Shown in pieces: positions 6,457 through 20,515 of a stretch of DNA of 64,000 bases. A program made the position numbers and the translations under genes. The notes below the pieces were generated by a model. The model had not been told where the DNA came from. It did not search any database and saw nothing but the letters and a program-made list of their open reading frames with translations. Every line of letters begins with the position of its first letter. The stretch's first letter is position 1. This DNA comes from Thermodesulfobacteriota bacterium. Its GTDB lineage: Bacteria > Desulfobacterota > Desulfobaccia > Desulfobaccales > 0-14-0-80-60-11. Where the stretch lies: positions 15,023 through 79,022 of the forward strand of contig JBFLXM010000004.1 in NCBI GenBank assembly GCA_040757175.1, written 5' to 3'.

Positions 6457-6918
6457 CTAAACCGCCTCCGCCCTTGGTTGGGTTGCCAGCCAGGCGGCCC
6501 GGGCTTCCCGTTTCACCGGGTTGGGCCCCAGCTTGAGGGCCCGCTCGTGCATTTCCTTACAGACCTGGGCAAATTTGGGACCCTCCCCGGAACTGACATG
6601 GAACATCTCCAGGCGTTCCGGTTCGATACCTAAGGCCGCCAGGTCATTTTTCAATTTGTTGACCTTCTTCTTGGCCCGGATATTCCCGGCCAGGTAATGG
6701 CAGTCTCCTTCGTGGCAGCCGGAAAGGAAGATCGTGTCGAACCCCAACTCCAAGGCCTTGAGGACATGGAGAATGTCCACCCGCCCGGTGCAGGGCACCA
6801 TCATGATCCTGATTTCCGGGGGGTATTGGAGGCGCATGGCGCCTGCCAGGTCGGCCCCGGCATACGAACACCAACGGCAACATATACCCAGTATCCTGGG
6901 GAACTCCGGTTCTTTCAT
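6457..6918 (-). CDS. mvhD: MvhD/FlpD-like (methyl-viologen-reducing hydrogenase delta subunit family) [2Fe-2S] electron-transfer protein, copy 1
   Basis: It has the family motifs CCRWCSYAGADLAG...QYPP..R...VPCTGRVD...GCHEGDCHY. The RBS is GGAGGGAG. Confidence 0.85.
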   Translation of the reverse strand: MKEPEFPRILGICCRWCSYAGADLAGAMRLQYPPEIRIMMVPCTGRVDILHVLKALELGFDTIFLSGCHEGDCHYLAGNIRAKKKVNKLKNDLAALGIEPERLEMFHVSSGEGPKFAQVCKEMHERALKLGPNPVKREARAAWLATQPRAEAV

Positions 6919-6940
6919 TTTTTCTCCCTCCGTTTATTTT

Positions 6941-7405
6941 TCAGGCTGCGTTACCGGCAGCGGATTGCCGGGCCAGCCAGGCGGTTCTAACCGCCCGGCG
7001 CACCGGATTAGGCCCTAACCGGTAGACCCGCTCCGTCATTTCCTTAGCAATCGCCGCGAATTTGGGGCCTTCCGAAGCGGACACGTGGAACATTTCCACC
7101 CGCTCCGGCTCCAGGCCCACTTCCTTGAGAATTTCCTTCATCCTTTCAACCCGCTTGCGGGCGTAAAGGTTGCCGCTCACATAATGGCAATCCCCTTCAT
7201 GGCAGCCCGAAACAAAGACCGCATCCGCCCCGGCCTCGAAGGCTTGCAGCAGGTGGAGGATGTCCACCTTCCCGGTGCAAGGCTCCATGATAATCCTGAC
7301 TTCCGGCGGATATTGCAGGCGCATGGCCCCCGCCAGGTCCGCGCCGGTATAGGAACACCAGCGGCACAGGAAACCCACAACCTTGGCAGAATATTCAGTG
7401 TTCAT
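6941..7405 (-). CDS. mvhD: MvhD/FlpD-like protein, copy 2
   Basis: It has the same motifs as copy 1 (LCRWCSYTGADLAG, GCHEGDCHY). The track start at 7426 is a GTG; the ATG at 7405 (MNTEYS...) has GGAGGA 5 nt upstream and is preferred. Confidence 0.85.
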   Translation of the reverse strand: MNTEYSAKVVGFLCRWCSYTGADLAGAMRLQYPPEVRIIMEPCTGKVDILHLLQAFEAGADAVFVSGCHEGDCHYVSGNLYARKRVERMKEILKEVGLEPERVEMFHVSASEGPKFAAIAKEMTERVYRLGPNPVRRAVRTAWLARQSAAGNAA

Positions 7406-7446
7406 AGGTCCTCCAACGGTAACCACCGAGGGTTGAAATCAGCGGC

Positions 7447-9480
7447 TTATGCCGCTTTGCCCAAATTAACCGCACACACCTTGTATTCCGGGGTTTTCGT
7501 GACCGGGTCCAGGGCCGCGTTGGTCAGGCGGTTGGCGGCGTTCTCCAGGTAGTGCATGGGAATGAAGACCACGCCGGGCTTCACCGCTTCGCTGACCCGG
7601 GCTTTCACCTCAATGCTGCCCCGGCGGCTGCTGGCCCGGATTTTCTCTCCCGATTCGATCTGCAGACGCTCGGCGTCCAGGGGATTGATTTCTATGAAGA
7701 CCTCGGGGTTTTCATGGTGCAGGGTGGGGCAGCGCCGGGTCATGGTGCCCGTGAGATAATGCGAAAAAAGCTGCCCGGTGGTCAGCCAGAAGGGGTAATC
7801 CGGGTCCGGGGACTCCGCGGGCGGACGGTAATCGATGGCTTGAAAGAGTCCTAACCCCCGCGTGAACCTATCTTTGTGCAGATACTGAGTGCCGGGATGG
7901 TCCGGAGTGGGGCAGGGCCAGCAGAGTCCCGCCGCGTCCAGCCGGGGGTAGCTCATGCCCCCATAGGCCGGAGTCAGGCTGGCCATCTCATCAAAGATTT
8001 CCTCCGCGGAACGGTACTTCATTGGATAACCCAGGCGGGTGGAGAGTTCCGGGATGATCTCCCAGTTGTGCTTGCCGGGAATGGGAGGAATAGCCTCCCG
8101 CACCCGCTGCACCCGGCGTTCCGAACTGGCGAAGGTGCCGTCCGTCTCCGCAAAGGAGGCGCCGGGAAGCACCACGTGGGCCAGGGCCGTGGTGGAAGTG
8201 GGGAAAATATCCAAAACCAGCAGGAATTCCAGGGATTCCAGGGCCTCCTGCACCCGGTTGGCGTTGGGATAGCTCACCACCGGGTTGGCCCCAAAAACCA
8301 CCAGACCTTTCACCTTGCCTTGATGGATGGCCTCGATCTGCTCCACCATGGTGAGTCCCGGAGCGCCGGAGAGTTTGACATTCCAGGCTTTCTCGAACTT
8401 TTCCACACATTCCGGCGCGCTCACGTATTGATAGCCGGGGAAGGCATTGGGGAGAGCGCCCATGTCGCAGGCCCCCTGCACGTTGTTCTGGCCCCGGATG
8501 GGGTTGACCCCGGTGGAGGGCCGGCCGATCTGGCCGCAGAGCATGGCCAGGTTGGCCAGACTCTTGACGTTGTCCGTACCGGTGCTGTGCTGGGTGATGC
8601 CCAAGACGTAGACAATGGCGCTGGCCGGGGATTTGGCGTACCATTCGGCCATTTTGACGATATCCCCAGCGGCTACGCCGGTGATCTCCGAGACCCGTTC
8701 GGGGGGAAACTGTTCAATCATCTCCACCAGCGCAGGGAAATTTTCCGTGCGCTCCTCGATAAACGCCTGGTTGTGCCAGCCGTTCTGGTAGATGACGTGC
8801 ATCAGGCCATTGATCAGGGCCACGTCCGTCCCCAGGTTCTGCTGCACGTGGAGATCGGCCAACTGCGCGATCTGGGTCTTCCGGGGATCGGCCACTATCA
8901 GCTTGCCGCCGTTGGCCTGGGCCCGCATCAGGCGTTTGGCCGCGATGGGGTGGGAGACGGTGGTGTTGGAGCCGATCACCAGGAGGCACTTGGCCTGTTC
9001 CAGTTCCGCAAAGGAGTTGGTCATGGCCCCGCTCCCGAAGGAGACGGCCAGGCCGGCCACCGTGGGGGCGTGGCAGAGACGGGCGCAATGGTCCACGTGG
9101 TTGTGGCCGAACACGGCCCGGGCGAATTTCTGAAAGATATAGGTCTCTTCGTTGGGGCAGCGGGCCGAACCCACAAACACCACGCTCTCCGGCCCATAGG
9201 TATTTTTTAGCCTGGTCAATTCGGACGCGGCGTAATCATAGGCCTGGTCCCAGGTGGCTTCCCGCAAAGAGCCGCCTTGACGGATGAGAGGCTTGGTGAG
9301 GCGGTCGGGATGCTGAATGAATTCATGCACACTCCAGCCCTTGATGCAGAGACTCCCCTCGTTCGACGGCCCGCTCTTGGCAGCCAGGGTGTTGATGATC
9401 TTTCCGTCGAGCACCTCGAAGATAAAATTGCACCCCACCCCGCAATAGGGGCAGGTGGTGAGAACCGAGCGAAAATCCAT
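7447..9480 (-). CDS. fdhA: Formate dehydrogenase catalytic subunit, Cys-type, cytoplasmic, copy 2 (diverged paralog of 4404..6443)
   Basis: It has CPYCGVGCN and VDHCARLCHAPTV, and is colinear with copy 1 with many substitutions throughout. The RBS is GAGGAG. Confidence 0.85.
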   Translation of the reverse strand: MDFRSVLTTCPYCGVGCNFIFEVLDGKIINTLAAKSGPSNEGSLCIKGWSVHEFIQHPDRLTKPLIRQGGSLREATWDQAYDYAASELTRLKNTYGPESVVFVGSARCPNEETYIFQKFARAVFGHNHVDHCARLCHAPTVAGLAVSFGSGAMTNSFAELEQAKCLLVIGSNTTVSHPIAAKRLMRAQANGGKLIVADPRKTQIAQLADLHVQQNLGTDVALINGLMHVIYQNGWHNQAFIEERTENFPALVEMIEQFPPERVSEITGVAAGDIVKMAEWYAKSPASAIVYVLGITQHSTGTDNVKSLANLAMLCGQIGRPSTGVNPIRGQNNVQGACDMGALPNAFPGYQYVSAPECVEKFEKAWNVKLSGAPGLTMVEQIEAIHQGKVKGLVVFGANPVVSYPNANRVQEALESLEFLLVLDIFPTSTTALAHVVLPGASFAETDGTFASSERRVQRVREAIPPIPGKHNWEIIPELSTRLGYPMKYRSAEEIFDEMASLTPAYGGMSYPRLDAAGLCWPCPTPDHPGTQYLHKDRFTRGLGLFQAIDYRPPAESPDPDYPFWLTTGQLFSHYLTGTMTRRCPTLHHENPEVFIEINPLDAERLQIESGEKIRASSRRGSIEVKARVSEAVKPGVVFIPMHYLENAANRLTNAALDPVTKTPEYKVCAVNLGKAA

Positions 9481-9512
9481 ATATCAATCTCCTCATTTGC
9501 GGCCGTAAAGGC

Positions 9513-10322
9513 TTATAACGGCTTGGTCTCCAAGGTCGCTTCCTCTCCCAGCATTTTCCAGGGAGAGGGACCGGCTTCCGGGGAGCCGACATTATAATCG
9601 AACAAGTCCTTCACCAGGGCGTTGGCCTTCTTGTACAGGACCCGCAAGGGGATGTCCGCGGGGCAGTTTTCTTCACACAGGCCGCAGTCGATGCAGCGTC
9701 CGGCCATGTGGATGGCCCGCACCAGTTGAAAGATGCTATCCGGCGGCAATTGGCCGGTGCTCATCAGGTCCTCATGCTCCAGGGAGCATTCCTTGCAAAA
9801 GCACATGGGGCAGACATCCCGGCAGCCGTAGCATTTGATGCACTTTTTAAACGCGGCCAGCCATTCCTGAAACGCGTCCTGCTCCGCCAGGGCGTCGACG
9901 CGTTCCACCCGCCGGCTCTTGATTACCGGCTGACATTTTTCCCCGTAATCCACCACCGAGGTCCAGGGGCCGGAACACTCGCAGTAATCGGCCTGGCTCT
10001 GGGTGCAGGCGACGCCCACCGGCACCACCTTTTCCGGGTCCAGTTGGCCCCACTTGTATAGTTCGTTGAGCCCTCGTTCGTCGCAGCCCCTTACCTGGAT
10101 GGCAAACGCGGCCTCGGGATAGTGGCCCGCCAGGGCTATCAAGAGCTTATCCAGGGGATAGCGGCAATTATCGGGGGCGACAATGGCCCGGTCCACCTCC
10201 GCCAGGTTCTCCTTGGTGAAGAGATGCGGCAGGGGGTGGCCCTCCTTTATGAGGTAGCCGAGGTATCCGGCGACTTTGTCTTCGGTAAGAAGTTTTTTGA
10301 CTTTTGCGCGTAGTTTATCCAT
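9513..10322 (-). CDS. 4Fe-4S dicluster electron-transfer protein (AsrA / sulfhydrogenase-beta-like Cys pattern)
   Basis: It carries CIKCYGCRDVCPMCFCKEC and CIDCGLCEENCP. It sits between mvhD and fdhA in the operon. Confidence 0.65.
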   Translation of the reverse strand: MDKLRAKVKKLLTEDKVAGYLGYLIKEGHPLPHLFTKENLAEVDRAIVAPDNCRYPLDKLLIALAGHYPEAAFAIQVRGCDERGLNELYKWGQLDPEKVVPVGVACTQSQADYCECSGPWTSVVDYGEKCQPVIKSRRVERVDALAEQDAFQEWLAAFKKCIKCYGCRDVCPMCFCKECSLEHEDLMSTGQLPPDSIFQLVRAIHMAGRCIDCGLCEENCPADIPLRVLYKKANALVKDLFDYNVGSPEAGPSPWKMLGEEATLETKPL

Positions 10323-10354
10323 GAGAACTATCCTTATCAGCCCTAATCAGGCCG

Positions 10355-10786
10355 CTAAGCCGCCCTGGCCGCGGCCTTCAGGCGGGCCGGGCCCATTTTC
10401 TTGATCTTTTCCGTGAAATTCCGCACCGTCTCGGCGAACTTGGGGCCTTCCGCGGCGGAGATCCATTCCAGGTGCAACCGTCCAGGTTCAAATCCGGTGA
10501 ATTTCAGGAGGTCCTGGAGGAAACGCATGCGCTTGACGGTCATGTAATTGCCCCGGAGATAATGGCAGTCGCCAATGTGGCAGCCGCCGATGAGCACGCC
10601 GTCCGCGCCTTTCTGGAAGGCCTTGAGCACGTGGTGGGGCGACACCGTGCCGGAACACATGACCCGGATGACCCGGATATTAGGGGGATACTGAAGACGG
10701 CTCACCCCGGCCAGGTCGGCCCCGGCGTAGGTGCACCAATTACAGAAGAAACCGATGATCTTCGGTTCGAAATTGCTCTCGGACAT
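10355..10786 (-). CDS. mvhD: MvhD/FlpD-like protein, copy 3
   Basis: It has FCNWCTYAGADLAG...QYPP...GCHIGDCHY. Confidence 0.85.
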   Translation of the reverse strand: MSESNFEPKIIGFFCNWCTYAGADLAGVSRLQYPPNIRVIRVMCSGTVSPHHVLKAFQKGADGVLIGGCHIGDCHYLRGNYMTVKRMRFLQDLLKFTGFEPGRLHLEWISAAEGPKFAETVRNFTEKIKKMGPARLKAAARAA

Positions 10787-10838
10787 AATGTGACCTTCTC
10801 TCTTTATTTTGCGCCTTTGCGTCTTGGCGTGAGGTTTA

Positions 10839-13800
10839 TCAGCCCGCGGCCTCGTCCATTTTCAGTTCGGCCAGGGCCTCGTCTATCTGGGTATAGATCT
10901 GCTTGTGGCTGAAGCCCATGAGGGTGATGCACTCCGACGGGCAGTTGGCCGCGCAGGTGCCGCAGCCCTTGCACAGGGCCTGGTTCACTTCACAGACCTT
11001 TGCCGTTTCTTGGTAGTCGATGGCCACGAAGGGGCAGACCCCCACACAGGCCTGGCAGCCGGAACAGAGCGCGGGATCGATGCTGGCCACCACGCCCCCG
11101 GCCTTGATGGACTCCTGGCTCAAAACCACCGCGGCCCGGGCCGCGGCGGCCTTGGCCTGGGCGATGGCTTCATCCAGGGGCTTGGGATAGTGAGCCAGAC
11201 CCGCGACAAAGACGCCCTCGGTGGCAAAGTCCACCGGCCGCAGCTTCATGTGGGCCTCCAGGAAGAAGCCCTCGTGGTTCAGGGGCACCTTGAACATCTG
11301 GGCCAGCTTCTCCTGTTCCTTGACAATGATGGCGGAAGCCAGGGTGAGGACGTCGGGCCGGATGGTGACGGGCAAACCCAGGATGAGGTCTTGGACCGTG
11401 ACCTGGAGACCGCCGTCCGCGGTTTGCGCCACTTGGGGCTTGTCGTCCGCGTGGAAGCGGATGAAGATGACTCCCTTCTCCCGGGCCTCATGGTAGAGAT
11501 TTTCCCTCAGGCCGTAGGTGCGCAGGTCCCGGTAGAAGATGTACACGTCCATCTCCGGATTGAGCTCTTTGAGCCGGATGGCGCTCTCCACCGAATGGGT
11601 GCAGCAGACCCGGCTGCAGTAAGGCCGCTCCGGTTCCCGGGAGCCCACGCACTGGATGAAGGCCGCGCATCTGGCCTCGGTGACCAGGGGATTTTTCTCC
11701 CGGAGGGCCTGGTCCATCTCCAGGGACAGCAGCACCCGGGGGTTTTCTTTATATAGATACTCTTTAGGCTTATACGAATGGCCGCCGCTGGCGATGATGG
11801 CGGCCCCGTGTTCCACTTCCACTTCCCGTCCCCCGGCGCTGAGGAGGCTGTGAAAATTACCCACAAACCCTTGCACGTCGGTGACTTCCGCCTTGAGGTG
11901 GACTTCGATCTGCGGGTGTTTGGATACCCGCTGCACCAGTCCGTCCACATACGGCTTGACGGGCTCGCCTCTCCAGGTCTGGTTGAGCTTCAGGGCGTGG
12001 CCGCCCAGGAAGTCTTTTTTCTCCACCAGATGCACCTTAAAGCCCTGGTCCGCCAGGCCCAGGGCCGCTTCCATACCCGCGGCGCCGCCGCCGATGACCA
12101 GCCCGGCCTTGGTGATGGGCAGGGTGAACTCTTTTAAAGGCTGCTGCAAGGCCACCTTGGCCACGGCCATGCGCACCTGGTCCTTGGCCCGCCGGGTGGC
12201 CCGCTCGGGCTCGTGCATGTGCACCCAGGAACCTTGATCCCGGATATTGGCCAGCTCAAAGAGGTATTTATTGAGCCCGGCTTCCTTGATGGTTTCCTGG
12301 AACAGAGGCTCATGGGTCTTGGGGGTGCAGGAGGCAACCACGATGCGGTTGAGATTGTGCTCCTTGATGCGCTCTTTGATGATCTCCTGGGTGTCCTGGG
12401 AGCAGGTGAAGAGGTTGTTCTCCACGTACTCCACATAGGGAAGCGTCTTGGCGTAATCCCGCACCGCCTCCACGTCGATGACACTGGCGATATTGATGCC
12501 GCAATGGCAGACGAAGACGCCCACCTGGGGCGTTTCCTGGGAAATGTCCCGTTCCGGGAATTCCGGCTTTTTCCTGGCCAGGGAGAAGCGGGCCGGGGCC
12601 AGCAGTTCCCCGGCTGCGGACGCGGAAGCCGAGGCTTCCATGACCGACTGGGGGATGTCCTTGGGCCCCTGGAACGCGCCGCAGACATAGATGCCGGGCC
12701 GGGTGGTGGCCACCGGCGCCAAGGAGGAGGTTTCCGCAAACTTATTGACGTTCAAGTCGATCCCCAAAGTGCGGCCCATCTCCAGCACCGCGGGCGGCAC
12801 TTCCAGACCCACGGACAACACCAGCAGGTCGAAGGTCTCGGACCTCAAGGTCCCGTCTTCATCGAGATAACGGATACTGAGGTCGTCGGTGCCCGGCACC
12901 GGGTCCACGCTATGGATCCGGGAGCGGATGAACCGGACCCCGTGCTCATCCCGGGCCCGCCAGTAATACTTTTCAAAATCCTTCCCCATGGTGCGCATAT
13001 CCATGAAGAAGATGGCGGCTTCCAGGCCGTTTTTGCTGTGCTCCTTGGCAATGACCGCCTCCTTGATGGCGTACATGCAGCAGACCGCGGAGCAGTGGCT
13101 GTTGTCGCAATGGTTCAGGTCCCGGGAGCCGACGCACTGCAGCCAGGCTATTCTTTGGGGCTCCTTGTGGTCCGACGGCCGCACCAGGTGGCCTTCGTAA
13201 GGACCGGAAGCGCTCAAGATGCGCTCAAACTCCATGCTGGTGACCACATTGGGCAGCGAGGCGTAGTGATAGGCCTCGTACTTGGTGGGATCGTAGGCTT
13301 TGAAGCCCGGGGCCAGGATCACCGCGCCCACCTGGAGGTCCCGGGGTTGGTCGGTTTGGGAGAAATCCACCGCGCCGGTGGGGCAGAATTTCTCGCAAGC
13401 CTTGCACTTTCCCCCCTTCTTGAAGAAGAGGCAGTTGTCGGCATCAATGGCGAATTTCAGGGGCACCGCCTGAGGATAGAGGACGTACGCGGCTTTGCGC
13501 GACATCAGCCCCTGGTTGAATTCGTCCGGCACCTTCTTGGGGCACTTTTCAGCGCACAGGCCGCAGGCGATGCACTTGGTCATATCAATATAACGGGCCG
13601 GCTGGTTCACGGTGACGGTAAAATTGCCTGGCTCCCCCTTGATCCCCTGCACCCGGGCCGGGGCCAGGATTTCAATATTCAAATGCCTGCCACATTCCAC
13701 CAGCTTGGGGGAGAGAATGCACATGGAGCAGTCGTTGGTGGGGAAGGTCTTGTCCAACTGGGCCATGACCCCGCCGATGGCGGGTCTGGCTTCCACCACA

Positions 13801-13913
13801 TAGACGTAAAATCCGGCGTCCGCCAGGTCCAGGGCCGCTTGCACTCCGGCAATGCCCGCGCCCACCACCATCACCGCGCCCACCGGGTCGGTTCCGTGCT
13901 TTTGCGATTTCAT
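10839..13913 (-). CDS. hdrA: Large HdrA-like FAD/FeS oxidoreductase with two tandem HdrA modules
   Basis: Module 1 has VVGAGIAGVQAALDLADAG, DCSMCILSPK, CIACGLCAEKCP and CVGSRD..HCSAVCCMY. Module 2 has VIGGGAAGMEAALGLADQG and CVGSREPERPYCSRVCCTH, and the C-terminus has 2x[4Fe-4S] (CSGCQACVGVCP, CKGCGTCAANCP). The track start at 13949 is a GTG; the ATG at 13913 (MKSQKHG) has AGGTGA upstream and is preferred. Confidence 0.85.
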   Translation of the reverse strand: MKSQKHGTDPVGAVMVVGAGIAGVQAALDLADAGFYVYVVEARPAIGGVMAQLDKTFPTNDCSMCILSPKLVECGRHLNIEILAPARVQGIKGEPGNFTVTVNQPARYIDMTKCIACGLCAEKCPKKVPDEFNQGLMSRKAAYVLYPQAVPLKFAIDADNCLFFKKGGKCKACEKFCPTGAVDFSQTDQPRDLQVGAVILAPGFKAYDPTKYEAYHYASLPNVVTSMEFERILSASGPYEGHLVRPSDHKEPQRIAWLQCVGSRDLNHCDNSHCSAVCCMYAIKEAVIAKEHSKNGLEAAIFFMDMRTMGKDFEKYYWRARDEHGVRFIRSRIHSVDPVPGTDDLSIRYLDEDGTLRSETFDLLVLSVGLEVPPAVLEMGRTLGIDLNVNKFAETSSLAPVATTRPGIYVCGAFQGPKDIPQSVMEASASASAAGELLAPARFSLARKKPEFPERDISQETPQVGVFVCHCGINIASVIDVEAVRDYAKTLPYVEYVENNLFTCSQDTQEIIKERIKEHNLNRIVVASCTPKTHEPLFQETIKEAGLNKYLFELANIRDQGSWVHMHEPERATRRAKDQVRMAVAKVALQQPLKEFTLPITKAGLVIGGGAAGMEAALGLADQGFKVHLVEKKDFLGGHALKLNQTWRGEPVKPYVDGLVQRVSKHPQIEVHLKAEVTDVQGFVGNFHSLLSAGGREVEVEHGAAIIASGGHSYKPKEYLYKENPRVLLSLEMDQALREKNPLVTEARCAAFIQCVGSREPERPYCSRVCCTHSVESAIRLKELNPEMDVYIFYRDLRTYGLRENLYHEAREKGVIFIRFHADDKPQVAQTADGGLQVTVQDLILGLPVTIRPDVLTLASAIIVKEQEKLAQMFKVPLNHEGFFLEAHMKLRPVDFATEGVFVAGLAHYPKPLDEAIAQAKAAAARAAVVLSQESIKAGGVVASIDPALCSGCQACVGVCPFVAIDYQETAKVCEVNQALCKGCGTCAANCPSECITLMGFSHKQIYTQIDEALAELKMDEAAG

Positions 13914-14371
13914 AGGTTCACCTGTAAATGGATTCTTTGGGGAGAGCACGATGAGTTATGGCTTCTCCCTGCAGTCGAGCGAATCGGGTAAACAAATCCT
14001 CAGGCGCCCTGAGATGCGGTGCCAGATGGGAGATAAGAATCCCTCATCGTGGCCCAAAATCTTCCAGGCGCAGGAAAACGCAGAACTACCTGAAGATTCA
14101 GGCGATTATCGAATCCAGGTTTATCAGGCTGAAGCTACTGCAGGGAGGTGGAAACTTGGGGAGGTGCTACCTTGAAAGGAGGGAACGCACTTCTTGCAAA
14201 GCTAACTGCAATCAGACCCTGATCCCAGGTGATCCGCCCCGTCCCTTTCCAGCCTGATGGGCTTCGAGAGCCTTGCCAAGGCTCCGCGGTCGCCTGAGCT
14301 TCAGGATTTCACCATGATGGGAATCATCGGCCGATACACCCGGAATCACCTCCTTTATGAAAATTTGCGCA

Positions 14372-14399
14372 ATTATAAACCAAATGGCCAAGGAATCAA
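14372..14399 (-). promoter_or_regulatory. Sigma70-type promoter candidate for the hdrA-fdh operon leader
   Basis: The reverse strand reads TTGATT (14399-14394), a 16-nt spacer, then TATAAT (14377-14372). About 20 nt downstream there is a perfect SD, AAGGAGGTGA. Confidence 0.45.
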
Positions 14400-14780
14400 T
14401 TTATTTCTTAAATTGTCCACACCATAGACTGATACTGCTCTTTATCCGCAGTTCATATCAATGTAATTGGGTTTCGATATACTTATCGTAATCCGCTCCT
14501 TTGAGCGCCTCCCCTGCCCCTCTCCCCTTCTCTGCCCGTCAATCTGGAGCAAATTTTTCCCCTCATTCGGTGGTTTCTTCTGGCACCATTCAGCTAAGCC
14601 TATGTTTTACCTAGGAATGGGCGTATACCGAAAAAAATGGGCACGAATGTACGCCTATCTGACGGGGGAAATCCCCAGGGGAAGGGACAGAAAAAGATTA
14701 CAAATAAGAAAACCTACTCACCAACCTATTTTCCTGCCAAAAAGGGGGCACCATAATTGACCTTAAGTCCTTGAAATCAT

Positions 14781-14836
14781 TGGTGCCTGGGGCCGGACTC
14801 GAACCGGCACGGGGCGAACCCCGAGGGTTTTTAAGA
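14781..14836 (-). pseudogene. 3-prime half of a tRNA-Leu(UAA) gene (anticodon loop to CCA); att-like island boundary
   Basis: The first 30 nt (14781-14810) are identical to 19095-19124 of the intact tRNA. The remainder is a related variable arm and anticodon stem-loop. The reverse strand reads CTTAAAAACCCTCGGGGTTCGCCCCGTGCCGGTTCGAGTCCGGCCCCAGGCACCA. Confidence 0.8.
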
Positions 14837-15147
14837 ACCAAAATCGCCAAAAAGCTTCCTTAGTCCTTCTCATAACTTACTGATTGTATTGGATTATACA
14901 GACATACTAATCAATGTTGGGGAGCTTTTGTAAAACAGCTTTATTTCCTTAATTTTCGCTGAGAAAGCAGTGCCTCGCCGGTAAGAATCCCCGGTATTTC
15001 CAGGGTTGCCGAGAACTCTCGTAGTATTGCACCCTTGTTTGTCGTTCTCAGGTAACCTCTTGTCTTTTGTAGGAAAATCAAATAAGATCAAAGCTCAATA
15101 TTCCCATGGCAGTAACTTCCGGACTTTAGCGTCTCTTAATAGGCACC

Positions 15148-18048
15148 TTGCCGAATCGTGCCATGATGGATTTCAAAACTCTGCTTCAAAAGCATCAGGC
15201 CTTGCTTGCCGAAAACCAGGCTTTGAAGGAAGAGAACCTATCCTTAAAGGTCCGGCTGGGCCTTGTCGAGCCACCTGAGAGACGATTTTCTCAGGAAGTG
15301 TTTAAGCGAGATCTCTCCCCATCGGCACCGTCAGTCACACTCAAGGCGACTACTCCGGCAGAGAAGGTCCAGCTCTTCATGTCCTTGTTCAAGGGGCGGG
15401 ACGATGTGTATGCCAAAAGATGGGAAAGCAAAGAAGGCAAGTCCGGATACGCACCTGTTTGCTTAAATGAATGGGCAGCCGGCTTCTGCCGAAAGCCCGA
15501 AGTCAAGTGCATTTCCTGTGAGCATAGATCATATGCCGCTCTGGATGGAAAGGTCATAGAAGCACACTTGCGTGGAAACCTTGTTGTCGGCATCTATCCC
15601 TTGCGCCAAGACGAAAAGTGCCACTTTCTGGCCATAGACTTCGATAAAGATGGCTGGCAACAGGATGTCTCCATTCTAAGAGGTGTTTGTCTGGCTTTTG
15701 CGGTGCCGGTGGGGATTGAACGTTCGCGCTCTGGTCATGGTGCCCATGCCTGGTTTTTCTTCACTGACCCGGTTGGGGCGAGTCTGGCTCGAAAATTTGG
15801 CTCTGCATTGCTGACCTGCGCCATGACCCGGTGTCATCAAATCAAGTTTAAATCTTACGACCAGTTATTCCCCAATCAGGACACCATACCCAAGGGTGGA
15901 TTCGGCAACCTGATTGCCCTGCCGTTACAAAAGACAGCGCGTCAAGAAGGCAACAGCGTCTTCATTGATGAGCGTTTCCAGCCCTATGAGGACCAGTGGG
16001 GATTTCTGGCCCAGATCGGGAGGCTTTCTGAAGACGAAATTAGTGCTTTGATCGCTAAACTTTGCGATGGGAGCGAACTCGGTGAGCTGAGACAAGATGA
16101 GGAAGAGGAGACCAAATCCTGGGAGCCGAGGCGGAGTAAGCTTTCACGGCATGAATTTCCGAAGGAAATTCAGGTAGTCAAAGCCAATATGCTTTACCTA
16201 AACAAATCAGGTGTTTCCCCGAGGGGGTTGAACACCTTAAAAAGGTTGGCCGCATTCAAGAATCCCGAGTTTTACCGGGCGCAGGCCATGCGCATGTCCA
16301 CTTACGGAAAACCTCGCATCATCTCCTGTTCAGAGGAAACCTCCGAGTACCTTTGTCTCCCGAGAGGATGTGAGGCAGATCTGTCTTCTCGTTTTGGAGA
16401 AGCTGGCGTCGAGGTCGAATGGCTAGACAGGACCGACCCGGGGAGACCCATCGAGGTTGCTTTTACAGGCATGTTGCGGGGGGACCAGGAACTCGCGGCA
16501 GAGGCAATGTTAAATCATGATTGCGGGGTTCTGGCGGCCGCCACAGCCTTCGGGAAAACTGTCATTGCTGCCAAGCTGATTGCCGAGCGCAAGACCAACA
16601 CACTCATCTTGACTCACCGCCAACAACTTCTTGCGCAGTGGCTGGCGAAGCTGGCTCAGTTTCTGGAAATCGCAGCGGAACTTCCTATGGTGACGACAAA
16701 GCTCGGGCGAAAACCGCAACAGAGCCTCATCGGGCAGATCGGTGCGGGAAGAGCGAATCCGAACGGTATTATCGATGTGGCGATCATGCAGTCCTTGACA
16801 AGAGGCGGGGAAGTGAAGGAGTTTATCAGAGATTATGGCATGGTGATTGTTGATGAGTGTCACCACGTACCTGCCTTCACATTCGAGCAGATACTTAAGC
16901 AGGTTCATGCCAAATACATTTATGGTTTGACGGCCACACCGGTCAGGCGTGACGGGCATCATCCTATTATTTTCATGCACTGCGGCCCCGTAAGGTACCG
17001 GGGGGATGCCAAAAAGGAGGCTTCGAGACGGCCGTTTGAGCACTATGTCATTCCCCGGTTCACCAGCTTCAGGGTGCCTTTTGACCAAGAAGAAAAGGAT
17101 ATTTCAATTCAGGAGTTCTATTCTGAAATCTCCACGGACGAATGGCGCAATCAGCTGATTATCGATGATGTCCTCAGGTCCCATGAAGAAGGCAGAAATG
17201 CGCTTATTCTCACCGAAAGGACCACCCATGTGGAACTGCTGGCTGGGAAGCTGAGCGAGCAAATCCCCGAAGTGATTACCCTAACTGGCGGGAAGGGAAG
17301 AAAGGAGAGCAGAAATGTCTTGGCCAGAATCTCCGAAACGCCCGCTGACGGGCAGTTGACCTTGGTTGCCACCGGCAGGTATATCGGGGAGGGCTTTGAT
17401 GAACCCCGGCTGGATACACTATTTCTGGCAATGCCCATATCATGGAGAGGTACATTGCAGCAATACGCTGGTAGGCTGCACCGCTTGTTCCAGAACAAGA
17501 AAGAGGTGCAGATCTATGACTATGTCGATATTTATGTAAAAATATTGGAGAAAATGTATCAGAAAAGGCTGGCTGGATATGCCGCCATCGGCTATCGGGC
17601 CAAAGCGGAAAGTCTCCCAACGGAACCCGCTAATAGTATTTTTGATAGCACCAATTTCCTCCCCGTTTACAATAATGACCTGATAAACGCCAGGCGCGAG
17701 GCGGTGATTGTCAGCCCGTTCGTGACAAGAAGGCGAGCCATGCAAATGCTGCCGCACCTGAAAGCGGCCATGGCAAAGAAGGTTTCCGTGGTTGTGGTCA
17801 CCAGGCCGATAAATTCTTACAAAGACCAGGTCCGGTCGACCTTGGAGGAAACTCTATACTCGGTGCAAAATACCGGCATACGCCTACTGTTTCAAGCTAA
17901 TATCCATCAAAAATTCGCGGTTATCGATCAGAAAATAGTATGGTACGGCAGCATCAACCTCCTCAGTTATGGGAGCGCCCAAGAAAGCTTTATGCGGCTG
18001 GAAAGCCCTAATATCGCCCAGGAACTGTTGAAAAACCTTTTAAATTGA
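15148..18048 (+). CDS. Fused archaeo-eukaryotic primase-polymerase (AEP) / SF2 DEAH helicase / HKD (PLD-family) nuclease protein
   Basis: AEP motifs are FLAIDFDKD, SRSGHGAHAWFFF and GFGNLIALPLQ. Helicase motifs are AFGKTV, VIVDECHH, GLTATP and QYAGRLHR. The HKD motif is HQKFAVIDQKIVWYGSIN. The N-terminus is a coiled coil. The track start at 15148 is a TTG; the first ATG is at 15163. Confidence 0.8.
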   Translation: MPNRAMMDFKTLLQKHQALLAENQALKEENLSLKVRLGLVEPPERRFSQEVFKRDLSPSAPSVTLKATTPAEKVQLFMSLFKGRDDVYAKRWESKEGKSGYAPVCLNEWAAGFCRKPEVKCISCEHRSYAALDGKVIEAHLRGNLVVGIYPLRQDEKCHFLAIDFDKDGWQQDVSILRGVCLAFAVPVGIERSRSGHGAHAWFFFTDPVGASLARKFGSALLTCAMTRCHQIKFKSYDQLFPNQDTIPKGGFGNLIALPLQKTARQEGNSVFIDERFQPYEDQWGFLAQIGRLSEDEISALIAKLCDGSELGELRQDEEEETKSWEPRRSKLSRHEFPKEIQVVKANMLYLNKSGVSPRGLNTLKRLAAFKNPEFYRAQAMRMSTYGKPRIISCSEETSEYLCLPRGCEADLSSRFGEAGVEVEWLDRTDPGRPIEVAFTGMLRGDQELAAEAMLNHDCGVLAAATAFGKTVIAAKLIAERKTNTLILTHRQQLLAQWLAKLAQFLEIAAELPMVTTKLGRKPQQSLIGQIGAGRANPNGIIDVAIMQSLTRGGEVKEFIRDYGMVIVDECHHVPAFTFEQILKQVHAKYIYGLTATPVRRDGHHPIIFMHCGPVRYRGDAKKEASRRPFEHYVIPRFTSFRVPFDQEEKDISIQEFYSEISTDEWRNQLIIDDVLRSHEEGRNALILTERTTHVELLAGKLSEQIPEVITLTGGKGRKESRNVLARISETPADGQLTLVATGRYIGEGFDEPRLDTLFLAMPISWRGTLQQYAGRLHRLFQNKKEVQIYDYVDIYVKILEKMYQKRLAGYAAIGYRAKAESLPTEPANSIFDSTNFLPVYNNDLINARREAVIVSPFVTRRRAMQMLPHLKAAMAKKVSVVVVTRPINSYKDQVRSTLEETLYSVQNTGIRLLFQANIHQKFAVIDQKIVWYGSINLLSYGSAQESFMRLESPNIAQELLKNLLN

Positions 18049-18074
18049 TCTCTAACAGACCAGGAGAGTCAACT

Positions 18075-18536
18075 ATGGAAGACCAGGACGAAATCTTGTC
18101 TCAAATAGTAACCGCCCTTCAGGAAGGTTTGGGAGAGCGCCTGGTAGCTGTTGTCTTGTATGGCTCTCGAGCCCGGGGTCAGGCGCGTGAGGTCAGTGAT
18201 TGGGATCTATTTATCATTGCCTCGGATTTACCGGCGCGACTTTGGGAGCGGCATGTCCTTTTAAAGCGTTTTCTTCCGGCTGCATATCGCAGTGCAATAT
18301 CTCTTTTGGCCAAGACCCCCCACGAATTTGAAGAAAGAATTTCCTCCATATATCTGGATATCGCCCAGGATGGTCAAATTCTATATGACCCCCAAGGATA
18401 TGCCAGTCGGCGTTTGGCTGATTTGCAGCGGCTGATGGCGGAGACGGGTCTTTATCGTAAGCAATCTTCGGGTGGTGAGGTCTGGAGATGGCGACAAAAG
18501 CCCCGGCGACCCTGGGCACTTGAGTGGAAGGAATGA
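18075..18536 (+). CDS. Minimal nucleotidyltransferase (MNT / MntA-like antitoxin)
   Basis: It has the GS...DxD signature YGSRARGQAREVSDWDLF. The ATG at 18075 is preceded by AGGAGAG. The track start at 18045 is a TTG overlapping the upstream stop. Confidence 0.8.
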   Translation: MEDQDEILSQIVTALQEGLGERLVAVVLYGSRARGQAREVSDWDLFIIASDLPARLWERHVLLKRFLPAAYRSAISLLAKTPHEFEERISSIYLDIAQDGQILYDPQGYASRRLADLQRLMAETGLYRKQSSGGEVWRWRQKPRRPWALEWKE

Positions 18537-18539
18537 TCG

Positions 18540-18962
18540 ATGCTGGCTCCCGAGGAAGTCTCTTACCGCCTTCGCCTAGTCTTGGGATTTCTTGAAGAAG
18601 CCCGCCAGGATTTCACCTTGGAGCGGTGGCGCTCATGTGTCGATAATAGCCAGTTGGCCACGGAAAACGCAGCGAAGGCTGTGTTGGCGCTTTTGGGGCC
18701 AGTGGGGCGCACGCACAATCCCTCTTTATTATTACGAGAAGCATTGGCAGGAGGAGAATTCCCGGCGGAAATTTCTTCACAAGTGGAACGCCTGGCAGAA
18801 TGTGCTGAGCTTTTGGGGCCAGATATCCATGTGCAAAGCGATTATGGTGATGAGGCTGGCGGACGTACTCCGTGGGAATTGTTCGACCAGGACACAGCCC
18901 GCCAAGCTCTTGACCTCGCAGAGGAGGTTGCTGAATTATCTCAGAAGGTTTTGACCACATGA
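18540..18962 (+). CDS. HEPN-domain protein (HepT-like toxin partner of the MNT)
   Basis: It is about 140 aa and all-helical, starts 3 nt after the MNT stop, and has the segment AENAAKAVLALLGPVGRTHNPSLLL typical of PF05168-type HEPN proteins. The pairing with the MNT supports the call. Confidence 0.7.
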   Translation: MLAPEEVSYRLRLVLGFLEEARQDFTLERWRSCVDNSQLATENAAKAVLALLGPVGRTHNPSLLLREALAGGEFPAEISSQVERLAECAELLGPDIHVQSDYGDEAGGRTPWELFDQDTARQALDLAEEVAELSQKVLTT

Positions 18963-19094
18963 TATAGGCCTGGTAGCCGTTGATTCAAGGCCAGGAAACC
19001 GACATGTCTGGCAGATTTTTAAAAACCTACTAACGATACCTCCTAACCGTTGATTGTCTGTAAATTTTATTAAAGCGTAAGCGTTTGGTTTTAC

Positions 19095-19182
19095 TGGTGC
19101 CTGGGGCCGGACTCGAACCGGCACAGGCGCGAGGCCCGAGGGATTTTAAGTCCCTTGCGTCTACCCGTTCCGCCACCCAGGC
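19095..19182 (-). tRNA. tRNA-Leu (anticodon UAA), intact, with encoded CCA
   Basis: The reverse strand reads GCCTGGGTGGCGGAACGGGTAGACGCAAGGGACTTAAAATCCCTCGGGCCTCGCGCCTGTGCCGGTTCGAGTCCGGCCCCAGGCACCA. It has a 7-bp acceptor stem, anticodon loop CTTAAAA, a long variable arm and T-loop TTCGAGT. Confidence 0.9.
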
Positions 19183-19253
19183 TCTTTAGTAATTTCAATA
19201 AGTGGTCAATTTGTGGTAAGGGCAAAAAAAAGCTTTGGTGTCCATATCGGTGT

Positions 19254-19543
19254 CTATCTTGCCCCTGCCAAGGCTTTAAGCTCTTCTTCGCTTACCTTGT
19301 TATCGCGTTGGAACACCTGCATGGTTTTAGGCCCACTCGCCGCCATTATACGGAAGTAGTCATGCCCCTGCAACCGCCAGTTGTTAATAGCCATATCCAG
19401 AAGTTGTGAAAAGTGAAATTTTCTATCCCGGGCTGTTTGCAAGCCCTATCGAATATTACGCGGCAGGAAGTTATCGGTTGGCCGCCCCGGGTGAATACTT
19501 TCACCCCTGGCAGGGCCCGGGGCCTGGCGCTGGACTCTGCCAC
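19254..19543 (-). pseudogene. Decayed tyrosine-recombinase (integrase) C-terminal remnant
   Basis: Two frames carry box-II-like fragments: ENFTFHNFWIWLLTTGG (compare FTFHDLRHTFAS.L...G) and GHDYFRIMAASGPKTMQVFQRDNKVSEEELKAL (compare GVDL..IQ.LLGH.SI.MT.RY.HL..E.L). It is frameshifted, catalytic residues are lost and the N-terminal domain is missing. Confidence 0.45.
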
Positions 19544-19708
19544 CAGTTTAGGAGACCAGGTCGAAGACAGACTTCCAGGTCTAAATTTTCAGGTTATGCC
19601 GCTTTTTGCACTCGGGACACCCTGTTAAGACCACTACATCCTGCTTTCCCCAAGGGTTCTCTGGGCCCTGAAACTTTTGTTTACCGTTATGCCCAGGAAG
19701 GCCTCTGG

Positions 19709-20023
19709 TTAGCGTTCAATTTCAATTCGAAGAGTAGGGCCGCCTTTACGCGAAGTTAAATAACACGTGCCCAAGCCTCTCACCCTTCCGTCATAGGTAT
19801 CATCGTTTTTCTCGTCGGAAATCTCTATCACACCCATCTTATTGACATAACCAGACATTATTGCTTTACCATAATTGTTATAGATTACCACATGGCCTTT
19901 ATCATCAACCCAACCTTGATAGACTTTTCCTCCTTGATAAACAGTCACACTTCCTGAAATCCCTTGCTGAACAGTAAATAATCCAATAATAACCACCATT
20001 AATAGAATAGCTAATGTTCTCAT
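19709..20023 (-). CDS. Small secreted or membrane-anchored hypothetical protein (low GC)
   Basis: The N-terminal hydrophobic signal is MRTLAILLMVVIIGLFTV. I recognise no family for it. It lies inside the island. Confidence 0.45.
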   Translation of the reverse strand: MRTLAILLMVVIIGLFTVQQGISGSVTVYQGGKVYQGWVDDKGHVVIYNNYGKAIMSGYVNKMGVIEISDEKNDDTYDGRVRGLGTCYLTSRKGGPTLRIEIER

Positions 20024-20200
20024 GTTGCCGCATCCTTATTGGGTTATGGGGCCACAAGAGGCCACTGTGTGTCTATCTTTCCTTTTATTCCTGTTAAATC
20101 CTGCTTTCTTATGCACACTAGCACAAGTGCCAATTAATTGCAACCGCTAAATATTGTTTAATACTGCCAAGTCCTGCCAACCCCCTTTTTTTGCTTTTTC

Positions 20201-20234
20201 AGTCCCTTGCGTCTATCCGTTCCAACACCCAGGC
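20201..20234 (-). pseudogene. 5-prime half of a tRNA-Leu gene (5-prime end to anticodon loop), decayed; att-like island boundary
   Basis: The reverse strand reads GCCTGGGTGTTGGAACGGATAGACGCAAGGGACT, matching nt 1-34 of the intact tRNA with 3 mismatches that break the D-stem. Confidence 0.7.
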
Positions 20235-20314
20235 AGAATATACAATTTTTGACATTTTTTTGGTCTGGTACCCGCCATCATTCGCAAGCAGCCGCGGCCC
20301 CGCAACCGCCAGTT

Positions 20315-20413
20315 ATACTGTTTTCGGTTTTCGGTTTTCAGTTTTCGGTTAAAAGATTGTCAATTATCAATAAGTTAGTGGTTTGGTTTGTTGCGGCAGA
20401 ATCCGAACTTGGT
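20315..20413. mobile_element. MITE family B, copy 1 (99 bp; TACTG(TTTTCGG)n...CGAACTTGGTA; TSD TTA)
   Basis: It is homologous to 48244-48342 and 59022-59113 and is flanked by TTA/TTA. Confidence 0.7.
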
Positions 20414-20515
20414 ATTAGTTATGGGAGGCGAAAAAGGGCGCGCCCGGGCAGGTCACCAAAATTTCAGGCGGACATGCAGTCCGCCCCGTAAAAACTAGAT
20501 TCACTGCAAAGACCC

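Follow-up and report, generated by a model that had tools for sequence, protein, structure and literature searches.

The only tRNA gene that ARAGORN identifies in the window (the whole 64-kb stretch of DNA that was analysed) is a tRNA-Leu(taa) gene, 19095–19182(-), which scores 58.3 bits (E=6e-11) against the Rfam tRNA model. A BLAST search of the window with this gene yields two partial copies, a 5' fragment located upstream and a 3' fragment located downstream, both in the same orientation as the intact gene (Table 1); the remaining matches are 12-mers with E ~0.4. The intact tRNA-Leu(UAA) gene and the two displaced pieces reported in a first-pass annotation are thus real, with ARAGORN, Rfam and BLAST in agreement, and the similarity of the fragments is significant in a formal alignment. 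The intact gene is separated by repeat spacings of 1052 nt from the 5' fragment (repeat family D5) and of 4314–4315 from the 3' fragment. It divides the interval between them into a downstream islet, here denoted F, and an upstream element, E' (19183–20195). As noted previously, this interval is lower in GC than its surroundings (flanks, 0.58–0.61; islet F, 0.505; E', 0.454; the small ORF of E', 0.387).

Table 1. Features of the tRNA-Leu(UAA) locus (positions in the window)
Feature	Position	Strand	Basis and remarks
Displaced 3' fragment, tRNA nt 33-88 (anticodon loop to CCA)	14781..14835	-	BLAST 91%/56 nt, E=5e-13
Islet F, 4.26 kb, predicted defence module	14837..19094		Between the 3' end of the intact tRNA and the cognate 3' fragment; GC 0.505
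AEP (TOTE-type primase-polymerase)-SF2 helicase-PLD nuclease fusion, 960 aa	15166..18048	+	Pfam, PADLOC
MNT (minimal nucleotidyltransferase)	18075..18536	+	Pfam Polbeta 1.3e-7, NTP_transf_2 6.8e-6
HEPN-domain protein, partner of MNT	18540..18962	+	Pfam HEPN 6e-12
Repeat A[GA]CCGTTGATT, two exact copies 70 nt apart	18975..19055	+	Repeat family D6; between HEPN stop and tRNA 3' end
tRNA-Leu(UAA), intact, putatively chimeric	19095..19182	-	ARAGORN; Rfam 58.3 bits
Integrase-tRNA spacer, GATAGACACC..ATGGACACC..TTATTGAAAT	19183..19253	-	Aligned with L081, L082, L084, L095, L157; conserved
E' integrase pseudogene (remnant 1)	19254..19643	-	tblastn, blastn, translation; frameshift, catalytic residues gone
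ORF, 104 aa, hydrophobic N-terminus, GC 0.39	19709..20023	-	ORF list
GATAGACAC, second exact copy	20069..20077	-	Partner at 19250-19258, integrase-tRNA spacer
Displaced 5' fragment, tRNA nt 1-39, loop CTGAAAA	20196..20234	-	BLAST 90%/39 nt, E=1e-7
Older integrase scrap (remnant 2), translated NWRLRGRGCLRMMAGTRPK	20256..20316	-	Lies 22 nt upstream of the 5' fragment

As described before, the 3' piece matches the intact gene exactly in its final 30 nt and has a different variable arm. This arm, CGGGGTTCGCCCCG, is exactly that of the intact tRNA-Leu(UAA) in L081, L084 and L157 (loci from other metagenomic genomes), and the fragment as a whole is 98% identical to the intact L081 tRNA over 55 nt (BLAST). 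Given that the same arm is found in intact tRNAs, it is, judging from these matches, a genuine functional allele and more than a foldable sequence. The 5' piece shows the three mismatches previously counted in nt 1–34 (G10T, C11T and G19A, in the D-stem and the D-loop) and a further change, T35G, within the anticodon loop. The claim that the pieces meet at the anticodon loop holds, but they do not merely abut: each contains the whole 7-nt loop (CTTAAAA in the 3' piece, CTGAAAA in the 5' piece), so that they overlap by nt 33–39 and have nothing else in common.

Element E' and the integrase remnants

The spacer that separates the intact tRNA from the integrase pseudogene, together with the 3' end of the latter, is 74% identical to L084 over 325 nt (blastn). 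From its position, it must contain, or lie downstream of, the present putative promoter of the tRNA, and a simple sigma-70 scan finds no promoter within it. The pseudogene consists of ~25 N-terminal codons including a Zn-ribbon motif (19643–19570) fused to ~95 C-terminal codons (19549–19257), which implies an internal deletion of ~240 codons; the earlier description of a frameshifted integrase remnant was therefore correct except that more than the C-terminus is retained. In tblastn searches with full-length family integrases, it matches residues 313–362 and 269–318 of the L084 integrase (74% and 60% identity, respectively). The N-terminal matches are weak (L084 residues 8–59, E 0.07; L095 residues 4–37, E 0.03), and in blastn 19556–19623 is 75–78% identical to the 5' ends of the integrase genes of L103, L111 and L093. 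In the translation, the GH and RY motifs are replaced by GP and RD, respectively. With the internal deletion, the frameshift and the loss of catalytic residues, the integrase is dead, as had been supposed, and the island, the entire array included, would be fixed.

The sole surviving cargo of E' is the 104-aa ORF, which has no match in Pfam, PADLOC or NCBIfam and no homologue among the fetched loci. The two copies of GATAGACAC are its only exact matches in the 64 kb, both within the 1.05 kb of E', and could represent arm-type sites beside the attP core of circularised E'.

Remnant 2 is 72% identical over 58 nt to remnant 1, which lies upstream of the intact tRNA (repeat family D1). Its Smith-Waterman score is 41 compared to 18.1±2.3 for shuffled sequences, none of 1000 shuffles scoring that high, and blastn shows 77–84% identity to the integrase genes of L108, L157, L086 and L081. 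The identity of remnant 2 to the L095 integrase (82%, blastn) exceeds that to remnant 1 (about 72–79%), pointing to separate elements and not to local duplication; this scrap would be what remains of a previous 5'-donating element. Given that a sequence homologous to remnant 1 precedes the 5' piece, the latter would most simply be a 5' half that came with a previous member of this family rather than the original half of the host, and the proposal that the two pieces are halves of one second tRNA copy is probably wrong.

Islet F and its cargo

The cargo named in the first-pass annotation, an AEP-helicase-PLD protein, MNT and HEPN, is confirmed by profile searches. For the 960-aa fusion, these detect AEP-TOTE (1.6e-100), ResIII (4.5e-20; ResIII/DEAD) and PLDc_2 (5.4e-11) in Pfam and PrimPol (6e-94) in PADLOC, and we predict that this protein is an anti-MGE effector. 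It is 100% identical to NCBI MEW6657110.1 (Thermodesulfobacteriota MAG), and its relatives, with ~82% protein and 81–82% DNA identity, are located in other islands. The MNT protein scores 31.5 bits against the NCBIfam MntA model, under the cut-off of 60, and the gene more likely starts at the ATG at 18075, which is preceded by an RBS, than at the listed TTG at 18045. The TOTE gene of L164 and that of L165 are also followed by an NTP_transf_2 gene, and in L165 a HEPN gene occupies the equivalent position. In L164, the TOTE-MNT-HEPN genes belong to a 14.4-kb tRNA-Pro island, and in L165 to a transposase-rich region; this is a portable, independently mobile module present in unrelated islands. 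In islet F, the operon is apparently intact and is predicted to function in defence.

MNT-HEPN genes are known as type VII toxin-antitoxin pairs. Islet F resembles these pairs as well as the TOTE conflict systems (TPR, OB, TBP, Effector; Aravind et al., 2022, as cited in PMC12458937) in that an AEP-TOTE protein is followed by MNT and HEPN, the same three-gene order as in L164 and L165. Unlike TOTE systems, the islet has no TPR-OB or TBP partner genes, and an SF2 helicase and a PLD nuclease are part of the same polypeptide as its AEP.

The direct repeat CCGTTGATT, previously noticed between HEPN and the tRNA, is present there in two exact copies (18975–18985 and 19045–19055), with no others in the window; with one mismatch allowed, the window contains 6 matches against 2.85 expected. 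This pair could represent arm-type sites of islet F.

Integrase relatives and their tRNA targets

The integrase family was sampled as 80 metagenomic loci with genes for integrase relatives. In most of these, a tRNA gene lies ~15–110 nt from the integrase stop codon, and most integrase genes are convergent with the adjoining tRNA. Displaced 3' fragments are present in four loci of the convergent type (L149, nt 32–77, 100%; L152, nt 30–77, 100%; L127, nt 33–75; L094, nt 34–85), and their starts at nt 30–34 imply that crossover in this family occurs in the anticodon loop. The co-oriented members, whose orientation implies donation of a 5' half, adjoin Leu(taa) in L081, L082, L084, L095 and L157, and elsewhere Arg(cct/tct/acg/ccg) and SeC. 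The co-oriented Leu(taa) integrases form one clade and are the nearest relatives of the remnant in the window (70–74% identity). A crude NJ tree suggests several switches of orientation in the wider family. In all relatives, the integrase gene occupies the tRNA-proximal edge of the element. The tRNAs of the co-oriented loci have an invariant 5' part and a variable arm that changes from genome to genome. In particular, nt 1–46 of the intact tRNA in the window are identical to the counterparts in L082, L084, L095 and L157, and its variable arm is found at this locus alone among those fetched.

The module consisting of the integrase, ~80 nt and tRNA-Leu(UAA) recurs in other genomes without TOTE cargo, and no 3' fragment was found downstream of it in L081, L082 or L095. 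L095 has an intact 368-aa integrase and, immediately beyond it and the tRNA, host-like DNA (GC 0.6); the region upstream of the integrase is island-like, of patchy GC, with cargo that includes a Type ISP R-M enzyme. L084 has the same kind of composite layout as the present locus: an intact integrase, tRNA-Leu, ~1 kb without an integrase, and a decayed 3' fragment. In L167, no integrase is found upstream of tRNA-Leu(UAA), and the linkage is therefore not ancestral. A second displaced 5' fragment was not detected in the other co-oriented loci, where upstream flanks are short (L095 is clear within 9.3 kb). An empty site in a close relative was not found, the one scan of genome contigs, with the neighbouring histidine kinase as query, retrieving only paralogues (37–52%).

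History of the locus and related islands

We consider it fairly probable that this locus is an integration hotspot, with at least three separate integrations at one tRNA-Leu(UAA), and not one split gene. This agrees with the first of two histories suggested earlier, a composite island resulting from successive insertions by a classical 3'-half donor and a rarer 5'-half donor. Under this scenario, tyrosine-integrase elements would have reused a single tRNA-Leu(UAA) by crossover in the 7-nt anticodon loop. The upstream type would represent one integrase clade that carries the integrase, the ~80-nt spacer and tRNA nt 1–39 at its right edge. Upon integration, such an element would shift the resident 5' half upstream and substitute its own copy both for this half and for all that precedes it, promoter included. 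Two of these elements would have arrived one after another. From the older one, there would remain the 60-nt integrase scrap and a 5' half, later displaced and now mutated (20196–20316); the younger, E', would have been reduced to the small ORF and the internally deleted integrase.

In the best reading, then, E' is a decayed 1.05-kb element that donated the 5' half of the tRNA, the 5' fragment being its attL-side scar, and islet F is a classical island without an integrase that donated the 3' half, the 3' fragment being its attR-side scar. F would have replaced the 3' half of the tRNA, displacing the resident one, and would have lost its integrase by deletion. Accordingly, nt 1–32 of the intact tRNA would come from E' and nt 40–88 from islet F, with the loop as the crossover region, making the expressed tRNA a chimera of two mobile-element halves. 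Against this explanation speak the negative searches, described above, for an empty site in a close relative and for a second displaced 5' fragment, and the fact that the initial 5' half of the host's own tRNA-Leu is missing. Furthermore, tblastn with eight family integrases as queries finds no integrase trace within islet F; given that neither an integrase nor recognisable debris is present, it is topology alone that supports classical integration.

The lack of debris also fits the possibility that islet F never had an integrase but is a non-autonomous mini-island, with an attP mimicking the tRNA-Leu loop and 3' half, mobilised in trans by a tRNA-Leu anticodon-loop enzyme such as the once-active upstream integrase or a convergent one of the L141 type. 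The clean att-like ends and intact cargo operon of F fit this idea, as does the ~1-kb segment without an integrase between the tRNA and the 3' fragment of L084, beside an intact integrase; moreover, the site, the anticodon stem-loop, is symmetric, and the family uses it in both orientations. We nevertheless find it doubtful because a plain deletion of an adjacent integrase gives the same picture, the repeat near the tRNA-proximal end of F (CCGTTGATT) is unlike that of E' (GATAGACAC), and further copies of the ends of F were not found in the fetched loci or viral contigs. The second of the earlier histories, to which we assign a low probability, invokes a single ~5.4-kb element that inserted in the host tRNA-Leu at the anticodon loop, did not regenerate the gene and brought with it the small ORF, the integrase, a complete replacement tRNA-Leu and TOTE-MNT-HEPN. 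It would explain why the fragments overlap exactly by the loop and can be joined into one gene and why the GC of the entire interval is below that of the flanks, and in L084, too, the tRNA lies between an integrase on its upstream side and a 3' fragment on its downstream side. However, the second integrase scrap directly upstream of the 5' fragment indicates that this fragment was already part of a module of integrase and 5' half. In addition, L081, L082 and L095 (integrase intact) have the integrase-tRNA module without downstream cargo or 3' fragment, the integrase of the relatives is never in mid-element, the TOTE module is mobile on its own, and the hypothetical attP junctions beside the loop, as read from the sequence, have little anticodon-stem-like symmetry.

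The scrap and the 5' half could also have been generated if the integrase-tRNA region was duplicated in tandem or recombined unequally, the two modules being direct repeats ~1 kb apart. This is very improbable given the divergence of the two integrase parts, with remnant 2 nearer to sequences from other metagenomes, and the repeat boundary located exactly at the anticodon loop, as site-specific recombination predicts. Accidental similarity of the pieces to tRNA, for which nothing speaks but their shortness, has a negligible probability: it is already refuted by the E-values of 5e-13 and 1e-7, far from the 12-mer background, and by the near-identity of the 3' piece to a real allele in another genome.

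The preferred history, with successive integrations by elements of two types, makes the locus a well-documented case of a known kind of genomic island; the mechanism is not new. Of the 3919 islands in Islander, 3760 have 3' fragments and 159 have 5' fragments (Hudson, Lau and Williams, 2015, PMC4383910), and 2083 attP sites are anticodon-centred; 5'-fragment islands and tandem arrays, the latter numbering 125, are thus already catalogued (PMC4383910). Islet F is similar to the 'A'-type 3'-fragment islands in lying between an intact tRNA and a cognate fragment of the same orientation that starts in the anticodon loop, in its GC below that of the flanks and in its cargo of predicted defence genes, but is very small (4.3 kb) and, lacking an integrase gene, would fail the integrase filter of Islander. 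E' shares with the 5'-fragment islands its location between an upstream 5' fragment (nt 1–39) and the regenerated tRNA, as well as a tRNA-proximal, co-oriented integrase, which here is an internally deleted pseudogene in an element down to 1.05 kb. What is added to these islands is a specific tRNA-Leu(UAA) integrase clade in Thermodesulfobacteriota-type metagenomes. As in tandem arrays, integration at one tDNA is repeated, each time with a fragment, and the upstream elements retain integrase remnants; unlike in those arrays, both sides of the tRNA are occupied (relics of the 5' type upstream, an islet of the 3' type downstream), so that both halves of the working tRNA would be element-derived.

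In SSV-type archaeal integration, attP is inside the int gene and integration splits the gene. Truncated integrase pieces adjoin tRNA genes in both cases, but the truncation described here is an internal deletion, with end-points that vary among relatives, and the att core is the anticodon loop of the tRNA, outside the integrase gene and ~115 nt downstream of its stop codon.

Displaced tRNA pieces and integrase remnants

The sole tRNA gene of the window, an intact tRNA-Leu(UAA), is accompanied by two displaced pieces of such a gene, all three in one orientation. The first-pass annotation had located and described these pieces correctly, and their significance is borne out by BLAST (see the table); all remaining matches to the intact tRNA across the whole window are 12-mer noise (E about 0.4). 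The same pieces were also recovered as repeat families D2, D5 and D11 in the repeat analysis of the window. Thus, the locus displays the fragment pattern of Islander-type mapping, namely, an intact tDNA with a cognate, co-directional 3' fragment downstream and a 5' fragment upstream. The halves are indeed split in the anticodon loop, as originally noted, and identity between the tDNA and each fragment ceases in this loop, which corresponds to the 'A' sublocation. However, they do not abut but overlap by nt 33-39, the full 7-nt anticodon loop (CTTAAAA and CTGAAAA). The variable arm of the 3' piece, CGGGGTTCGCCCCG, folds, as had been pointed out, but is more than foldable: it equals the arm of intact tRNA-Leu(UAA) genes in three comparison loci, L081, L084 and L157, and the piece is 98% identical to the L081 tRNA over 55 nt. 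The GC content is 0.58-0.61 in the flanks, 0.505 in the downstream stretch between the tRNA and the 3' piece (14837-19094, hereafter islet F) and 0.454 in the upstream one (19183-20195, the decayed element E').

Features of the tRNA-Leu(UAA) locus and of its surroundings (window coordinates)
Feature	Position	Strand	Evidence or remark
HdrA-like gene	10839-13949	minus	
Displaced 3' piece, tRNA nt 33-88	14781-14835	minus	BLAST vs window, 91%, E=5e-13
960-aa fusion: AEP-TOTE primase-polymerase, ResIII/DEAD helicase, PLD nuclease	15166-18048		Pfam AEP-TOTE, 1.6e-100
MNT	18075-18536		Pfam NTP_transf_2/Polbeta
HEPN protein	18540-18962		Pfam HEPN
Intact tRNA-Leu(taa)	19095-19182	minus	ARAGORN; Rfam tRNA model, 58.3 bits
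Remnant 1, C-terminal part, last ~95 residues of tyrosine integrase, two frames	19257-19549	minus (tRNA strand)	translation
Remnant 1, N-terminal part, first ~25 residues, Zn-ribbon motif	19570-19643		tblastn with full-length relatives, weak, E 0.03-0.07
Displaced 5' piece, tRNA nt 1-39	20196-20234	minus	BLAST vs window, 90%, E=1e-7
Second integrase scrap	20256-20316		22 nt upstream of displaced 5' half
Interspersed repeat, three copies in one orientation	20313-20422, 48241-48350, 59026-59117	minus	82% identical by column, n=3
Further heptamer run	41587-41616	plus	

The integrase pseudogene just upstream of the tRNA (remnant 1) had been recognized as a frameshifted C-terminal remnant. The remnant is real, but it is not merely frameshifted. 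The N-terminal part is supported by 75-78% identity of positions 19556-19623 to integrase 5' ends (blastn) and, given that both termini are retained, about 240 central codons must have been deleted. The catalytic residues are decayed (GH to GP, RY to RD, and FSQLLD in the HxxR region), and the complete R..K..HxxR..H/W..Y domain (PF00589) of an active tyrosine recombinase is absent; neither ORF fragment yields a Pfam match at E<=0.01.

The second integrase scrap, which escaped the first-pass annotation, forms repeat family D1 together with remnant 1 and is homologous to the same part of the integrase (local alignment score 41, against 18.1±2.3 for shuffled sequences, with 0 of 1000 shuffles reaching 41). 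It is 82% identical to the integrase of locus L095 (blastn). Hence a unit consisting of the integrase 3' end and the tRNA 5' part is present twice in tandem. The two copies diverge from each other as much as from the integrases of other genomes, and the older scrap stops precisely at the edge of a 95-nt interspersed repeat.

A conserved GATAGACACC-N5-GGACACC motif (19236-19258, minus strand) is located at or just past the integrase stop codon and is also found in the equivalent spacers of L081, L082 and L084. Several relatives (P0010, P0011, P0072, P0073, L149) translate it as a C-terminal '...MDTxMDT' tail. This motif could be an arm-type or core-proximal integrase-binding site inside the gene end.

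An integrase family in two orientations

The first homologue search, with the reconstructed remnant as the query, returned only short proteins (50-154 aa), 78 integrase C-termini in all; on two 70-kb contigs (L081, L082), such a C-terminus and a tRNA-Leu(UAA) ~80 nt downstream of it share a strand. With an alignment of these fragments as the query, a scan of metagenomes then yielded 80 loci, many of which encode full-length integrases of 365-390 aa, and in most of which a tRNA is found ~15-110 nt from the integrase stop codon. A conserved mini-protein, or a split integrase gene like that of SSV, was considered and rejected since full-length proteins of 365-390 aa occur in the same clade (L084, L095); the varying truncation points and the location of many short forms on short contigs also oppose this idea. 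The search of viral contigs with the integrase gave one partial match, without a tRNA, and those with the unusual variable arm of the intact tRNA and with the TOTE protein gave none.

Most loci of the family have the classical, convergent integrase-tRNA layout. In four of these (L149, L152, L127 and L094), displaced 3' fragments begin at tRNA nt 30-34, indicating that this integrase family crosses over in the anticodon loop. In a co-oriented minority, with the integrase on the tRNA strand and upstream of the tRNA, the targets are Leu(taa) (L081, L082, L084, L095, L157), Arg(cct/tct/acg/ccg) and SeC. Both arrangements exist within the family for Arg(acg), Arg(cct), Arg(ccg) and Leu(taa) (L084-L163). 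A co-oriented integrase can lie inside its element only if the element reaches upstream of the tRNA and supplies the tRNA 5' part. In a rough NJ tree, the co-oriented Leu(taa) integrases form one clade, the most similar to the window remnant, and close relatives differ in integrase orientation for several tRNA species, which suggests that donation at the symmetric anticodon stem-loop has repeatedly switched between the 3' and the 5' half.

The co-oriented Leu loci all share one tRNA sequence at nt 1-46, the 5' part, and have variable arms that differ by genome, consistent with resident 3' halves to which a mobile 5' half has been joined. In L095, an intact integrase and the tRNA are followed by host-like DNA (GC 0.6) encoding a methyltransferase and a chromate transporter, and the upstream side carries patchy-GC cargo including a Type ISP restriction enzyme. 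The linkage between the integrase and tRNA-Leu(UAA) is not ancestral, given that L167 contains this tRNA without an integrase upstream. A comparable composite tRNA-Leu(UAA) locus is present in a JGI metagenome (L084, 1267-2404). Its intact integrase, of 367 aa, precedes the tRNA by 79 nt; ~1 kb past the tRNA comes a decayed 3' fragment that retains the variable arm, T arm and acceptor (94% over 32 nt), and no convincing gene was found in the intervening ~1 kb. None of the other co-oriented loci inspected for a displaced 5' fragment (L095, L172-L175 and short loci) contained one. In L173-L176, an IS21-family insertion (Mu-transposase C-terminal domain and IstB) truncates the 5' side of an integrase remnant that is co-oriented with, and overlaps, a tRNA-Arg(acg); the same arrangement recurs in several samples.

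Islet F and its cargo

The largest gene of islet F encodes a fusion in which the AEP-TOTE domain (PF22548) is covered at profile positions 1-229 of 230; the protein matches MEW6657110.1, encoded on an 84.9-kb contig of a Thermodesulfobacteriota MAG, at 100% identity. The MNT and HEPN Pfam matches fall on overlapping adjacent ORFs, the gene-pair arrangement by which we predict a type VII toxin-antitoxin pair; the NCBIfam MntA score, 31.5 bits, is below the cut-off of 60. TOTE stands for TPR-OB-TBP-Effector conflict systems (PMC12458937). Compared with the components described for these systems (PMC12458937), the AEP-TOTE domain protein is present in islet F, whereas the TPR-OB(CSD) and TBP neighbor genes are absent, the islet otherwise encoding only MNT and HEPN.

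Homologues of the TOTE protein (~82% protein identity, 81-82% DNA identity) with the same MNT-HEPN partners are found in L164 and L165. The former (291-14800) is a 14.4-kb tRNA-Pro(GGG) island with a displaced 3' fragment (nt 31-77, 100%) that encodes an integrase, PglZ/BrxL (partial BREX), Fic, an MqsA-like antitoxin, TOTE-MNT-HEPN and an HTH_17 protein adjoining the tRNA; its 82% DNA identity to the window TOTE gene begins ~75-100 nt upstream of the start codon. The latter is a transposase-rich region. The occurrence of the same partners in such different settings indicates that TOTE-MNT-HEPN is a portable cargo module.

The ends of islet F are clean and att-like, and two exact AxCCGTTGATT repeats lie beside the tRNA. 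Neither island has the integrase that Islander expects in each: E' retains only a pseudogene, and tblastn with the family integrases detected no integrase gene or trace inside islet F. Islet F could have entered either with its own integrase, since deleted, or by mobilization in trans; its repeats differ from the GATAGACAC pair in E', which lends no support to mobilization by the E' integrase.

History of the array and neighboring features

The simplest history of the locus comprises three integrations at one tRNA-Leu(UAA). Upstream, an older 5'-donating element, now reduced to 20196-20316, would have been followed by a second such element, E', which pushed out the 5' half of its predecessor and later lost most of its integrase. 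Downstream, the classical 3'-donating islet F, which may have arrived before, between or after these two, would have moved the resident 3' half to its present position. The working tRNA would then be a chimera, with the 5' half from E' and the 3' half from islet F, and the expected circle junctions would be GGGACTTAAAA joined to AGCAAAAA for E' and GGTTCTTAAAATCCC for islet F. The upstream array has the order of a 5'-half-donating layout, running along the tRNA strand from the 5' fragment through the small ORF and the integrase remnant to the tRNA, and the original host 5' half is no longer present. One genome-contig scan for an empty-site or orthologous locus, with the adjacent, poorly conserved histidine kinase as the query, returned distant paralogues only.

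The first-pass annotation had offered, as the alternative to two successive insertions, a single ~5.4-kb element carrying its own complete tRNA-Leu. Three observations are left unexplained by such an element: the second integrase scrap, the presence of the integrase-tRNA module without downstream cargo in other genomes, and the constant position of the family integrase at the element edge. A bolder elaboration of the three-integration history, which we consider unlikely, has two parts. In the first, elements of the co-oriented clade would take over both the promoter and the 5' half of a tRNA-Leu(UAA) gene that is possibly the sole copy in the cell; the integrase-proximal element end would then be undeletable, which would be the reason that short C-terminal integrase relics have survived ahead of this tRNA in the genomes where they are seen. 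In the second, islet F would be a non-autonomous hitch-hiker that relies on such an integrase in trans and enters the same symmetric anticodon-loop site in reverse orientation. No sigma-70 promoter, which would support promoter capture, was predicted in the integrase-tRNA spacer (19183-19253).

The Islander catalogue counts 159 islands with a 5' fragment, 3760 with a 3' fragment, 2083 attP sites centred on the anticodon and 125 tandem arrays (PMC4383910). Given that such islands and arrays are already listed, the locus is a well-resolved case of known kinds and gives no new mechanism. Modestly new are a two-sided array with a tRNA whose halves would both be element-derived, the use of a symmetric anticodon-loop site in both orientations by one integrase family, and a TOTE-type islet, with a predicted role in defence, that lacks an integrase. 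The locus is a clean worked example of a two-sided array with both halves of the working tRNA apparently from mobile elements. It also brings to light a tyrosine-integrase family of Thermodesulfobacteriota-type metagenomes that targets the anticodon loop of at least four tRNA species in either orientation, which is useful for software that maps islands, since such programs mainly look for 3' fragments and an integrase inside the island. In addition, it places the AEP(TOTE)-helicase-PLD/MNT/HEPN module on small portable islets.

Two further features adjoin the array. The stretch 13950-14780, 830 nt of low GC (0.486) that separate the HdrA-like gene start from the displaced 3' fragment, gave no Rfam match and no Pfam match for the two ORFs tested, and is presumably the promoter and leader region of the hdr operon. 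On the other side, the exact junction of the older integrase scrap with an interspersed intergenic repeat copy (20313-20422) may mark the deletion or insertion that truncated the scrap. This ~95-110-nt repeat has the form TAATACCAAGTTCG...AACTTATTGATAATT...CAATCTTTTAA(CCGAAAA)n GTATAA and may be either MITE-like or a regulatory cassette, its TTATTGATAATT core being operator-like in appearance. Similar (GAAAACC)n runs are found in L108 and L112, in the latter ~50 nt from a tRNA gene.
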